Shown here piece by piece: positions 2,826 through 57,088 of a stretch of 64,000 bases of DNA. This DNA comes from a bacterium (lineage in GTDB: Bacteria; Patescibacteriota; Minisyncoccia; Sungbacterales; SURF-37): assembly GCA_030648055.1 (NCBI GenBank), contig JAUSHI010000004.1:12836-76835 (forward strand). Direction: 5' to 3'. The position numbers and the translations under genes are program-made. Positions within the stretch are counted from its first letter, which is position 1; the number at the start of each line of letters is the position of its first letter. Below the pieces are notes generated by a model. That model was not told where the DNA came from, did not search any database, and worked only from the letters and a program-made list of their open reading frames with translations.

Positions 2826-3455
2826 TTATTTTGAATAATATTCCACAACAAGCGGCATGTTTTGTTGCGTCATTGTGTCTCCAATATTGGGCAGGCGGAC
2901 AACCCTTCCCTCGTGCTTGTTGTCTGCTAACTCAAGCCATTCCGGCGGGATGTATTTCTTTAATCTTGCGTTAAGATCTTGATATAAAGGTGATGACAGT
3001 TCCGATTCTTTCAAAGCAATCGCGTCCCCTATTCTTACTCTTAATGAGGGCTGACGCACACGTTTGCCATTAACTAAAATATGTCCGTGGCTGACAAGGT
3101 GTCTTGCAACGCTTCTTGAAATTGTGAAGCCAAACCGGAAAACTACATTATCAAGCCTTCGTTCCAGAAGCTCGGCAATGGTATCGGCAGTTGATTTTCC
3201 TTTATTTGCCAGCGCCTCTGTGTAATATTTTTTAAGCTTGCCGTTATTTATTCCGTAGATATATCTGACCTTTTGTTTTTCTTTCAATTGTACCCCATAT
3301 TCCGAGCGGCCGCGCCTTTTTTTCTTTCCGTGAACCCCCGGTGGATACGGACGTTTTACTATCGCGCTTTTTTGCGAAAAACTTCTCTCGCCTTTAAGGA
3401 AGAGTTTTTCGCCGATTCTTCTTTCTAATTTTTCTTTTGGGCGTGAGATGGGCAT
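2826..3455 (-). CDS. rpsD: 30S ribosomal protein S4
   Basis: YGVQLKEKQKVRYIYG...RRLDNVVFRFGF..SRSVARHLVSHGHILVNG, the S4 domain. Confidence 0.95.
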   Translation of the reverse strand: MPISRPKEKLERRIGEKLFLKGERSFSQKSAIVKRPYPPGVHGKKKRRGRSEYGVQLKEKQKVRYIYGINNGKLKKYYTEALANKGKSTADTIAELLERRLDNVVFRFGFTISRSVARHLVSHGHILVNGKRVRQPSLRVRIGDAIALKESELSSPLYQDLNARLKKYIPPEWLELADNKHEGRVVRLPNIGDTMTQQNMPLVVEYYSK

Positions 3456-17315: not shown

Positions 17316-17355
17316 AATTACCGTTTAATATGCTATAGCATATTAAACGGTAATT
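17316..17355. repeat. 40-bp perfect palindrome between the ROK kinase and HAD genes
   Basis: AATTACCGTTTAATATGCTA|TAGCATATTAAACGGTAATT, verified base by base. Confidence 0.9.
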
Positions 17356-28011: not shown

Positions 28012-29055
28012 ATGAATAATAACACGGTAAAAAGAAAAGCAAAAATTATCATAATTATCGGCCCGACAGCATCCGGCAAATCAGAGCTCGCGGTGGCGCT
28101 TGCCAAGCGATTCAGAGGTGAAATAATCTCTGCTGATTCACGCCAGGTCTATATCGGGCTTAATATTGGAACCGGCAAGGTACCCGGTAAGTGGCTAAAT
28201 CATTCCGCACAAAGCGGAATAATCGCCCCTATGGGGCCGAGCCATCGGGCTATAGGCCGATCAGATTTGCGTGGCAAATCTGATTTGAGGCGAACTGGCA
28301 TTTTTGCGTATAAAGGAATCCGCCACTATTGCATAGATTTTGTATCACCACGGAAGGTTTTCACCGCTGAAGATTTTAAAACATGCGCGGAAAAAACAAT
28401 AAAAGATATTTTATCTCGCGGAAAAATTCCTATAATAGTCGGCGGAACCGGATTTTATATTGATGCGGTTGTTTATGGAATGGGGTTTCCCTTGGTTCCG
28501 CCAAATAAAAAATTGCGCCTAATTTTGGAGCAGAAAGGCTTGCCGGAACTAATCCTTATTTTAAAAAAACTGGATTCTGCGCGGCTAAAAATGGTTGACA
28601 AGAAAAATCCTCATCGGCTTATCCGCGCCATTGAAATCGCAAAAGCGCTTGGGCACGTCCCTAAACTTAAGAAGCGCCCAATTTACCAAGCACTTTGGTT
28701 AGGAATAAAATTACCCAAAGACGAGCTTTCACGCCGGATTCATATTCGTCTCATCCAGCGAATGCGCGAAGGCATGGTTAAAGAGGCACAGAGTTTGCAT
28801 AAACACGGCCTGGGCTGGAAGCGGTTTTACGAGCTTGGTCTGGAATACAAATATTTAGCCGATTTTTTACGCGGGGAAATTACAAAAAATATAATGCTTA
28901 AAAACCTTGAGACCGCGATTCGCCATTACGCGCGCCGGCAGATGGTCTGGTTCAAGCGTAATCCGGAAATCCATTGGATAAAAAACAAAAAAGGCGCGGA
29001 GCGCGTTTTGAATATATCTTTGGGCAAGAAGAAAAATTATAGAGAACTAACGTGA
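28012..29055 (+). CDS. miaA: tRNA dimethylallyltransferase with an internal insertion
   Basis: P-loop GPTASGKSELAV, ISADSRQVY..L.IGT.K. An extra roughly 45-aa segment contains GRSDLRGKSDLRR. Confidence 0.9.
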   Translation: MNNNTVKRKAKIIIIIGPTASGKSELAVALAKRFRGEIISADSRQVYIGLNIGTGKVPGKWLNHSAQSGIIAPMGPSHRAIGRSDLRGKSDLRRTGIFAYKGIRHYCIDFVSPRKVFTAEDFKTCAEKTIKDILSRGKIPIIVGGTGFYIDAVVYGMGFPLVPPNKKLRLILEQKGLPELILILKKLDSARLKMVDKKNPHRLIRAIEIAKALGHVPKLKKRPIYQALWLGIKLPKDELSRRIHIRLIQRMREGMVKEAQSLHKHGLGWKRFYELGLEYKYLADFLRGEITKNIMLKNLETAIRHYARRQMVWFKRNPEIHWIKNKKGAERVLNISLGKKKNYRELT

Positions 29056-29445
29056 AAATAAGGACTTGAAGCGTTGCCACAGCGATGGCTTTTGGGATAC
29101 CCCCGCGTCTGTATCTGAAACGGGTGCGATAATGACCACAACAAGCTCTCCGGATTTTTGAAGACTGAGCTGTTCTTTGGCAAGTTTTTCTATTACTTCC
29201 GGAGTATTAGTTTGAGCTATCGCACTTTCAAGAAGATCGTTTGCTTCTTTGATTTTCGCGGTCTGGGTCTCAAGTTTTTTAGTATCACTGTAAATCGCGC
29301 GCTCTTTTAACACGATTCCGAAGGCTTTGTATCCAATGAAAAGACTTAGCATGAGTGCCGCTAATAGGGCGACATTAGAAGAAGCTAATCGCCGCGGTTC
29401 ACGGTAGGTTTCTATTATTTCTAAAAAATCTTGAAAAAATTTCAT
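29047..29445 (-). CDS. septum formation initiator family protein (FtsB/DivIC-like)
   Basis: Single TM, then coiled coil, then ...KLAKEQLSLQKSGELVVVI, the typical family C-terminus. Confidence 0.65.
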   Translation of the reverse strand: MKFFQDFLEIIETYREPRRLASSNVALLAALMLSLFIGYKAFGIVLKERAIYSDTKKLETQTAKIKEANDLLESAIAQTNTPEVIEKLAKEQLSLQKSGELVVVIIAPVSDTDAGVSQKPSLWQRFKSLFSR

Positions 29446-29458
29446 AAAGCGTTATAAT
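29431..29458 (+). promoter_or_regulatory. sigma70-type promoter (TTGAAA-16 nt-TATAAT)
   Basis: -35 at 29431..29436 and -10 at 29453..29458. Divergent from the ftsB-like gene. Confidence 0.55.
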
Positions 29459-29464
29459 GACCGT

Positions 29465-29739
29465 ACTATACGCATCCCGTAGTGAAGGTTCGAATGAGTC
29501 GCCGCAGGCGACCAAATGTGAACCATTATGGGTATTAAATAAACTAATTTCGGATAAGAATTATAAGCAAATAAACCCTGTAGTAGAAAGCGGCATTGCG
29601 CAGCGTATTGTTGAAAAAAACTTCTGTATAAAGATATGCACAATATGGAGTTACGACAGTTATGCGCAAAAAGTATTATGCCGCTTTTCACTACGCACTA
29701 CGGGGCAAACTGTTTAATAATTCTAACTTCTACTACAGG
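29465..29739 (+). promoter_or_regulatory. long structured 5' leader with alternative long-range pairings that occlude the start region of the small ORF
   Basis: CCTGTAGTAGAA (29577..29588) is perfectly complementary to TTCTACTACAGG (29728..29739, abutting ATG 29740). CCCGTAGTG (29476..29484) pairs with CACTACGGG (29696..29704). GAAAGCGGCAT..TTGCGCA pairs with TGCGCAA..ATGCCGCTTT. Confidence 0.5.
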
Positions 29740-29844
29740 ATGAAAAAAACACACCGTAAAAATTTAAATATTACCTGGGGTATAATCAGCGTTATTGCCG
29801 TTTTGGGCATGATCGCTTTCACCCTTCTCCCGTTAATTTATTAG
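29740..29844 (+). CDS. 34-aa basic-N-terminus single-TM peptide (an in-frame 60-aa version starts at 29662)
   Basis: MKKTHRKNLNITWGIISVIAVLGMIAFTLLPLIY. Part of track ORF 29662..29844. Confidence 0.4.
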   Translation: MKKTHRKNLNITWGIISVIAVLGMIAFTLLPLIY

Positions 29845-29921
29845 TCCCATATCGGTTATTTTATTTTAAGTATAATCGCTAAAACAGTAATTCCGCAAAT
29901 CGGGCTTTTGGTTCATCCCCG

Positions 29922-29959
29922 TTTCCTCATATAAAAACGATCGTTTTTATATGAGGAAA
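29922..29959. repeat. 38-bp perfect palindrome, copy 1
   Basis: TTTCCTCATATAAAAACGA|TCGTTTTTATATGAGGAAA, identical to 57051..57088. Confidence 0.95.
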
Positions 29960-30238
29960 CTGGATAAAACCGGCTGTTTTTTTAACTTCTTGTCAGTGAA
30001 AACGAGCAAAGTGAATTTGAGCGACTGTAAGAAACAAATCCCGCACTAATTTTGCCGTCATTTTTAACTGGAAACAACAAAAATTCATAGGTGAAAATAA
30101 TTTTATGCGAACCGCGTGCGTCTAATAGCCGCATTCCAATATAGGCGAATCAGTTCGCCGCGTATAACCTTGTAAAATTGGTGCTGTGGTGTTACTAATG
30201 GGTTGTTCTTTAAAACATTATGACAAAAGGGGGCACAC

Positions 30239-38537: not shown

Positions 38538-40040
<1,503 letters not shown>

Positions 40041-57050: not shown

Positions 57051-57088
57051 TTTCCTCATATAAAAACGATCGTTTTTATATGAGGAAA
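57051..57088. repeat. 38-bp perfect palindrome, copy 2, 8 nt after the uvrA stop
   Basis: Identical to 29922..29959. Confidence 0.95.

Follow-up and report, generated by a model that had tools for sequence, protein, structure and literature searches.

A candidate start-codon-occluding leader at a conserved small membrane-protein gene in one clade of Patescibacteria

Beside a divergently read ftsB/divIC-like gene, a 64-kb window of a Patescibacteria genome (the whole stretch of DNA analysed, 64,000 nucleotides) carries a short open reading frame (ORF), here denoted pep, whose predicted mRNA begins about 275 nucleotides before the start codon. The locus raises the question whether pep is a real gene and, if so, whether the long leader controls its translation. 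A reading made from the letters alone (here, the sequence-only reading) had proposed a promoter-driven, structured leader that occludes the start of a 34-amino-acid hydrophobic peptide, and had taken the whole for a type I toxin-like module or a new regulatory RNA. We found that pep is a genuine gene, and we put at about one half the probability that its leader is a clade-specific, start-codon-occluding element acting in cis, with a competing hairpin that forms on the nascent RNA.

Relatives were reached by protein searches with the peptide and with FtsB, and the loci fetched for comparison are numbered L001 to L033. L016 and L017 derive from Hainich groundwater runs, and the contig of the window also occurs in the run SRR13727527. 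The clade of the window comprises the window sequence itself, L014, L015, L016/L017 and L018; FtsB of its members L014-L018 is 60-67% identical to that of the window. Scans of GTDB genomes and JGI metagenomes anchored on MiaA found only relatives of at most 52% identity, none with pep, and DNA similar to the element was absent from those tested (L001-L003).

The product of pep, MKKTHRKNLNITWGIISVIAVLGMIAFTLLPLIY, has a basic N-terminus followed by one transmembrane segment, much as the sequence-only reading had described it. A gene caller had called a 60-amino-acid frame at this place, which is why an exact look-up of the 34-amino-acid product gave no match. Used as the query of a protein search, the 60-amino-acid frame retrieved four small proteins, all aligned to its last 34 residues and to nothing before them, and a profile search added nine further homologues (P0002-P0005 and P0011-P0019 overall). 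Searching 1.84 billion cluster representatives with HMMER yielded 77 representatives of the pep family at E <= 1e-3, each standing for a cluster at 50% identity. Nearly all members are 32-56 amino acids long and combine a basic N-terminus with a Trp and a core like (G/S)M(I/V)AFTLLPL. The transmembrane core, AVLGMIAFTLLP, is unchanged among the closest homologues, between the same sub-families in which the neighbouring DivIC proteins are only 25-32% identical. A 21-codon block of pep gave a proportion of nonsynonymous differences (pN) of ~0.1 against a proportion of synonymous differences (pS) of ~0.65 (range 0.6-0.8); the rows of L009 and L011, which were mis-registered in this Trp-anchored block, were ignored. 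That the longer frames might instead be ordinary conserved proteins had been left open by the sequence-only reading. We rejected both the 60- and the 86-amino-acid frame, since homology stops at the 34-amino-acid part and both frames cross an insertion of ~134 nucleotides found in the window only.

The gene is also fixed in its place. It occurs once per locus and once per 64-kb window, and the order divIC (minus strand), pep (plus), gdh (plus, where present) and lepA (minus) is constant across the fetched loci, the sole exception being L013, in which an ATP-synthase gene precedes pep. In the lineages that lack gdh (L019-L033) the pep stop lies 8-19 nucleotides from the stop of the convergent lepA. 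Every lineage examined is devoid of a Shine-Dalgarno sequence 5' of pep. Searches of Pfam and NCBIfam with 47 family members at curated cut-offs, and of PDB sequences, gave no match. Literature searches for type I systems of the candidate phyla radiation (CPR), or for a small protein linked to divIC/lepA, returned nothing relevant. Together, these data demonstrate that pep is a conserved gene under strong purifying selection, and that its family consists of unannotated, widespread, single-pass membrane proteins of ~35 amino acids. So strong a purifying selection, on a gene whose synteny is fixed, speaks for a housekeeping role, though not directly against toxicity.

The leader is preceded by a sigma-70-type promoter that had been correctly placed from the letters alone (Table 1), from which transcription is predicted to start at about 29465. 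A perfect TATAAT stands at the same position in all six sequences of the clade (the window, L014, L015, L016, L017 and L018). The TTGAAA element lies within ftsB codons and is likewise present in all six; in L018 it is parted from the -10 element by an unrelated hairpin insertion of ~135 nucleotides (CCCGGTATATCAACCTCGCAT...ATGCGAGGTTGTATTACCGGG, L018 ~2866-3000, between the ftsB start and TATAAT). Hairpin insertions seem frequent in the intergenic DNA of this clade. For the plus strand of 29464-29760 the fold energy is -88.9 kcal/mol (z = -5.69), a value reached by none of 200 dinucleotide shuffles, and the minus strand gives z = -2.5. Rfam returned no match for the window region at E <= 10 or for the relatives at E <= 1, apart from spurious microRNA-hairpin matches on a palindrome further downstream, and ARAGORN found no tRNA or tmRNA in the region. 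Readings of the leader as 6S RNA, signal recognition particle RNA, RNase P RNA or a riboswitch gained no support, and the widely conserved ligand-binding core expected of a riboswitch is at odds with a leader confined to one narrow clade; an integron attC site was rejected because its termini do not match the R-box consensus (by eye), and an RNA thermometer because the helix is too long and too stable.

Sequence conservation of the leader is high. With the window insertion left out, its core (-10 element to AUG) shares 88.5% identity with that of L018 and 85.7% with that of L017. At the nucleotide level the window and L018 are 64-70% identical in miaA, ftsB (64%), gdh (70%) and lepA, and 84% in the pep ORF; synonymous sites are saturated (pS 0.76 for ftsB and 0.73 for gdh, at amino-acid identities of 61% and 73%). 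The leader values come from pairwise alignment, as a global MAFFT alignment of the window and L018 misaligned the 5' leader through the extra L018 hairpin. The pep proteins of these two sequences have diverged over their N-terminal third, which makes a recent transfer of the whole cassette unlikely. On these comparisons we consider the leader core to be under constraint.

A perfect TATAAT together with a long hairpin ending on the pep ATG was found only in the clade of the window. In L019-L023 and L024-L033 a mere 55-71 nucleotides separate the divIC start from the pep ATG and the long leader is absent; L012 and L013 have a promoter-like site 7-8 nucleotides from the pep ATG, and most lineages outside the clade have leaders of 1-23 nucleotides. 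The long leader is a lineage-specific, derived state. In L014, L015, L017 and L018 ATGAAT borders the leader hairpin on its left side and ATGAA on its right; in the window the left copy has decayed to ACGCAT. The ATGAA flanks look as if the original start codon had been duplicated as the target of the insertion. In the same four relatives short upstream ORFs (MNPV... or MNPA..., ~16-22 codons, read by eye) start from the copy of the ATG at the 5' end of the leader; a conserved upstream ORF was not adopted as a feature of the leader, the window having ACGCAT in place of that ATG. More distant lineages carry long, unrelated low-complexity inverted repeats, composed of short repeated words (ATTCGTA, CGAAAT, ATCTGT, TTGGAAA), 5' of pep, at 849-976 in L009, 408-520 in L011, 206-320 in L012 and 371-520 in L013; that of L009 ends 2 nucleotides from the pep ATG. 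These repeats may function as RNA or be arrays of sites for DNA-binding proteins.

The part of the leader that bears on translation is the helix at its base. In the minimum free energy (MFE) fold the 5' end of the transcript pairs with the segment that runs into the start codon, and the whole AUG is paired; the isolated duplex of the two arms has an energy of -19.7 kcal/mol. In the window, L014, L015, L017 and L018 alike, a 5' arm AUCCCGUAG... pairs with ...CUACGGGAU(G), and the helix ends on the AUG. When the arms of these five sequences were aligned in a fixed register of 24 pairs, 80% of the cells were paired and 10 pairs were changed on both sides. None of 500 column shuffles reached any of the pairing measures, and sliding the partner by 1-3 columns left at most 46% of the cells paired and at most 3 double changes. 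The probability of being unpaired is 0.08 for the AUG and 0.33 for positions -15 to -1 in the window; for -15 to -1 it is 0.08-0.23 in L018, L017 and L015, and 0.85-0.98 in the short-leader L012, L013 and L019. By these measures the base helix over the start codon is conserved and covarying in the clade; to that extent the leader proposed from the letters alone is supported. As pep has no Shine-Dalgarno sequence in any lineage, an initiation region that needs to be single-stranded is the likely target, and burial of the start region should strongly reduce translation initiation.

Table 1. Coordinates of the pep locus in the window.
Feature	Position	Strand	Basis or remark
ftsB/divIC-like gene	29047..29445	-	divergent neighbour of pep; PF04977 DivIC match
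Sigma-70-type promoter, TTGAAA-16-TATAAT	29431..29458	+	11/12 consensus positions
Predicted 5' leader of pep mRNA, ~275 nt	29465..29739	+	fold energy, conservation
5' arm (A) of base helix, CATCCCGTAGTGAAGGTTCGAAT	29473..29495	+	pairs with 29720-29742 in MFE fold
GC hairpin, GTCGCC-GCA-GGCGAC	29498..29512	+	in every predicted fold
Proximal partner (B), CATTATGGG	29524..29532	+	can pair with 29476-29484 as a local hairpin on nascent RNA
Nested hairpin, ~134 nt (boundaries +/-4 nt)	29573..29706	+	window only; AAAC flank on both sides
3' arm (C) of base helix, ATTCTAACTTCTACTACAGG plus ATG start codon	29720..29742	+	MFE fold, conserved helix
pep, 34-aa single-pass membrane-protein gene	29740..29844	+	ATG 29740 to TAG 29844; basic N-terminus; no Shine-Dalgarno
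Candidate antisense promoter, TTGCGG (29898..29893)-18-TATACT (29874..29869)	29869..29898	-	conserved in L017 and L018
38-bp perfect palindrome (29922-29959) then T7 run (29977-29983)	29922..29983	+	probable 3' end of pep transcript

Folding of growing transcripts predicted a second partner for the 5' arm. As long as the distal arms have not been made, the MFE structure pairs 29476-83 with the proximal segment B; the long-range helix takes over as the MFE structure once the arm before the AUG has been transcribed. A local hairpin between the 5' arm and the proximal ...CGGG segment is predicted in the window, L018, L017, L015 and L014, and in one G.U pair of this hairpin L017 has C in place of U, which makes it G-C. 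The stem of the intervening GC hairpin is unchanged in the window, L017 and L018, its loop alone varying. In the window the fold with an open AUG lies 3.4 kcal/mol above the MFE, as a thermodynamic prediction.

We propose the following order of events. An inverted repeat would have inserted exactly at the start codon and given rise to the leader, so that pep would, in this clade only, be read from a consensus promoter and have a long leader. In the mature fold the 5' end of the mRNA (29473-29495) would pair with the 20 nucleotides before the AUG and with the AUG itself (29720-29742). On the nascent RNA, 29524-29532 would first pair with the 5' arm and leave the start free, for a short co-transcriptional period only; the more stable long-range helix would then close it, and translation would proceed mainly from nascent RNA. 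The arms of the nested inverted copy at ~29573-29706 may act as decoys. The translational effect and the kinetic switch are what we infer from the folding models.

The nested copy accounts for the pairings that had first drawn attention to the leader. The sequence-only reading had described 12 nucleotides at 29577-29588 complementary to 29728-29739, directly abutting ATG 29740, and 9 nucleotides at 29476-29484 complementary to 29696-29704; both matches are 100%, and the inverted-repeat search recovered both. The inner helix it described (29586-29602 with 29663-29688) is part of the MFE fold, and the CACTACG motif is indeed duplicated, at 29689-29702. Alignment showed that a segment of ~134 nucleotides covering this region is absent from the closest relatives, L017 and L018, and that its arms, CCTGTAGTAGAAAG ... 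CTTTTCACTACG/CACTACGGGG, are the leader arm motif in inverted orientation. The arm before the AUG is therefore perfectly complementary to the 5' arm of the insert, and the 5' arm of the transcript perfectly complementary to its 3' arm. The perfect 12- and 9-nucleotide matches thus arise because the insert is a nested inverted copy of the same hairpin; together with the inner helix they are by-products of this lineage-specific copy.

In the MFE fold the two hairpins are nested, with 29473-87 paired to 29727-42 around the internal helices of the insert (29576-602 with 29663-705; within these, the 17 nucleotides of 29580-29596 and 29678-29694 are 88% complementary). The 12- and 9-nucleotide long-range pairings cross each other, and are alternatives to the nested MFE fold at a cost of 3-9 kcal/mol: forcing the first gave -80.2 kcal/mol, and forcing the second gave -85.5 kcal/mol with the AUG region open. 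In L018 a further copy built on the same arms follows pep closely on its 3' side; CAAAC flanks it, and L017 is empty at that site. With arms CCCGTAGTGAAAG / CTTCTACTACGGG, duplicated flanks (ATGAA, CAAAC, AAAC) and empty sites in L017/L018, the element resembles in these features miniature inverted-repeat transposable elements (MITE) or repetitive extragenic palindromic sequences (REP). We found no other copy of the arm motif within the 64-kb window, and in the relatives copies occur only around pep. We read the copies as probable local duplications or insertions of a hairpin element, rather than as members of a dispersed repeat family.

Several points weigh against a start-occluding leader. 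The base helix of the window has itself decayed (3 mismatches and 2 G.U pairs), and its dominance varies with the assumed transcript ends, the AUG being partly open in the fold of 29465-29850. The transcription start and the strand of the leader transcript are themselves predictions. For the hairpins of the relatives neither strand folds better than the other (z -3 to -8), hence the functional strand cannot be set from energy; as a means of choosing the strand, folding energy was discarded, since the window favours the plus strand, the relatives are symmetric or mixed, and the base helix is likewise symmetric in its numbers of G.U and A.C. Inverted repeats are complementary by origin, and part of the covariation, which was scored on five sequences from three sub-lineages, may reflect replacement by related hairpin copies instead of point compensation. 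Finally, the high identity of the leader could stem from recombination between lineages, or from constraint on the ftsB transcript of the opposite strand.

That opposite strand provides the alternative that survives best. Where the sequence-only reading had seen no antisense promoter, we noticed a promoter-like site on the minus strand ~20-25 nucleotides beyond the pep stop, firing across pep towards ftsB (Table 1). Both hexamers and their 18-nucleotide spacing are kept in the window, L017 and L018, and only 6 of the 18 spacer positions are identical. A promoter scan detected the copy of L018 (TTGCGA-18-TATACT, L018 2548-2577); the copy of the window falls under the scan threshold because its -35 hexamer matches at only 3 of 6 positions. 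Neither in the window nor in L018 does a minus-strand terminator separate this site from ftsB, which makes it more simply an ftsB promoter. On the simplest reading of the sequence, it would give ftsB a 5' untranslated region (UTR) of ~415 nucleotides, antisense to the whole pep gene.

Under this alternative, pep and its hairpin lie inside the ftsB 5' UTR, and the hairpin, or an excludon-like overlap of the two transcripts, tunes ftsB or tunes pep and ftsB reciprocally, acting on the other strand or at the level of DNA. The antisense site is the only conserved sigma-70-like site 5' of ftsB on its strand, the hairpins of the relatives fold as well on the minus strand, divIC-pep adjacency is nearly universal, and the loops are conserved as well as the stems, which fits a dual constraint. 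Where a relative lacks gdh, its lepA reads in the same direction as divIC and has its stop close to that of pep, so that antisense read-through across pep is probably ancestral; read-through from lepA would produce the same overlap there. However, in the window the plus strand folds much better than the minus strand (z -5.7 against -2.5), and the conserved TATAAT reads on the plus strand, its minus-strand version being TATAAC or TATAGC, without the critical final T. A role in ftsB expression also leaves unexplained why, in each of the five sequences, the pep AUG is exactly where the helix ends, and ftsB may itself be leaderless, transcribed from a -10-like box by its ATG. We regard this explanation as unlikely, though less so than those that follow.

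A neutral origin of the hairpins is improbable to a further degree. It would hold that they are selfish or slippage-born palindromic insertions, MITE/REP-like or local duplicates, whose complementarity to the AUG is an accident of the insertion site. Filled and empty sites with short flank duplications are what this view expects (ATGAA at the leader, CAAAC at the second L018 copy, AAAC at the nested copy of the window), and the further, unrelated hairpin of L018 between ftsB and the promoter, the unrelated low-complexity inverted repeats of other relatives at the same intergenic position, and the decaying base helix of the window fit it too. It is hard to reconcile with a leader core, loops included, that is 86-88% identical across lineages with saturated synonymous sites, or with a pairing that survives 10 double changes. 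Moreover, an arm motif with no other copy in the 64-kb window is not behaving as a genome-wide mobile repeat.

Held with no more confidence than the neutral account is a combined proposal, in which hairpin, pep and convergent promoter form a fixed chromosomal unit in CPR bacteria: the occluding leader would have been domesticated from a hairpin inserted at the ATG and, together with the complete overlap with the ftsB 5' UTR, would tie the expression of pep to that of ftsB in a circuit resembling a type I system or an excludon. To our knowledge, neither kind of circuit has been described in that phylum.

The lowest probability goes to a type I toxin-antitoxin module, with pep as a membrane-damaging toxin, a leader that keeps its mRNA inert and an antisense RNA from 29869-29898 that overlaps the 3' end and the ORF as antitoxin: the small peptide with its basic and hydrophobic parts (34 amino acids, under the limit of 60, with the same architecture family-wide), the sequestered start codon, the antisense -35 and -10 elements with their fixed 18-nucleotide spacer in three sequences, and the L018 gene flanked 5' and 3' by same-arm hairpins that would allow hok-type 5'-3' pairing all suit it, but the family, with 77 representatives at 50% identity, is a broad and old one whose core is invariant where DivIC is not, pep is single-copy in fixed synteny rather than patchy or multi-copy, most lineages have leaders of 1-23 nucleotides, the lineages without gdh leave no space for an antitoxin gene before lepA, no toxin family of Pfam/NCBIfam (Hok/Gef, Ldr, Fst, TisB, Ibs, ShoB, Zor and others) and no Rfam antitoxin matches, and an antisense transcript that meets no terminator before ftsB is more simply ftsB mRNA. 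The toxin-like identity favoured by the sequence-only reading therefore fits poorly.

Comparison with known systems places the start-occluding leader among familiar devices. In hok/sok-type mRNAs, long-range fold-back inhibits translation, and metastable hairpins form on the nascent RNA. The pep locus shares with them a small hydrophobic peptide gene, a structured mRNA whose distal 5' segment pairs with the start region, alternative hairpins of the nascent RNA and a convergent antisense promoter-like site. It differs in that pep is ancient, single-copy, syntenic and under purifying selection, and that the leader is absent from most family members; moreover it has no conserved mok-like overlapping frame, no discrete antisense RNA or terminator that could be defined, and no membership in a toxin family. 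In the leader of the maturation (A-protein) gene of phage MS2, a long-distance interaction closes the start site, and translation is controlled kinetically. There, as predicted here, the equilibrium fold hides the start codon by a long-range helix with the 5' side, and translation is expected before that fold is reached. Unlike pep, which is chromosomal, lacks a Shine-Dalgarno sequence and has a kinetic model that is a prediction, the MS2 case concerns a phage RNA genome and depends on a Shine-Dalgarno sequence.

The hairpin element and the peptide also have counterparts. Correia elements of Neisseria, enterobacterial ERIC and REP, and pneumococcal RUP and BOX are transcribed inverted repeats present in tens to hundreds of dispersed copies. 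Like them, the element at pep is an inverted-repeat hairpin with short flank duplications, lies between a promoter and a gene, is predicted to be co-transcribed, can be nested and occurs in either orientation. Unlike them, its copies are found at this locus alone, its arms are conserved while the interiors are unrelated, and no transposase or REP-associated tyrosine transposase (RAYT) partner was seen. Blr, AcrZ, KdpF and CydX are conserved membrane proteins of ~30-40 amino acids that bind larger membrane complexes. The pep product resembles them in length, in its single transmembrane helix, N-terminal positive charge and one strongly conserved helix, and in its linkage to a coherent neighbour (divIC/ftsB); it has no sequence similarity to any of them.

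At the 3' side of pep, the perfect palindrome of 38 bp that had been noted from the letters alone is present and is followed by a T run. In L017 and L018 a canonical terminator stands at the homologous place. The palindrome, TTTCCTCATATAAAAACGATCGTTTTTATATGAGGAAA, occurs twice in the window, at 29922-29959 and 57051-57088; the copies are 100% identical and both intergenic. An unrelated perfect palindrome of 40 bp lies in another intergenic spot (17316-17355). The window palindromes may serve as terminators, bind a protein or make up a small repeat family. Between pep and gdh, L009 (1153-1178) and L011 (747-772) have a terminator-like hairpin that carries a U-tract, and the gdh Shine-Dalgarno sequence and ATG follow within ~20 nucleotides; this leaves no space for a promoter, and gdh may therefore depend on read-through from pep.

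The locus as a whole reads miaA (plus strand), ftsB/divIC (minus), a 793-nucleotide spacer that holds the element, gdh (plus) and lepA (minus). The nearest named relative of this CPR/Patescibacteria genome by FtsB is Candidatus Sungiibacteriota (Parcubacteria group), and the FtsB of the window is identical to a protein of a metagenome-assembled genome at NCBI. Within the spacer, a non-coding block of ~250 nucleotides 5' of gdh (29985-30238) is common to the window and L018 (reverse strand, ~2140-2400) at 72% identity with two indels, and is wholly missing from L017. A promoter-like TTGTAA-17-TACTAA stands at its 3' end, and folding detected no unusual structure on either strand of the block (z -1.2 and +0.5).

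Most genes of the window lack a Shine-Dalgarno sequence, although GGAGG-like motifs precede a few genes (gdh, 55541, 61738). We noticed by eye -10-like hexamers (TATCCT, TAGTAT, TACTAT, TAAAAT, TACAAT) about 2-7 nucleotides 5' of the starts at 28012, 35553, 38028, 41965 and 7873. Such hexamers near starts suggest that leaderless transcription is widespread in this genome. The 3' tail of the 16S rRNA (38540-38600, minus strand) reads ...GGAUGGAACAAUUCUUUUU in place of the canonical ...GGAUCACCUCCUUA, and the anti-Shine-Dalgarno CCUCC appears to be missing from its 3' end.

CPR/Patescibacteria have tiny genomes, and we know of almost no regulatory RNAs or small proteins described in them. Start-site sequestration and transcribed inverted repeats are already well known, and the locus adds a probable case of cis regulation, and an unannotated family of small proteins, rather than a new principle. 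More conserved than the adjacent divisome gene and tightly linked to divIC/ftsB, the pep family is a candidate small subunit of the divisome or of another membrane complex. In one clade a hairpin appears to have inserted at its start codon and been retained, and is now the most conserved DNA of the locus. If the start-occluding leader proposed here is true, it would be a simple case of how a gene that is leaderless or lacks a Shine-Dalgarno sequence gains post-transcriptional control.

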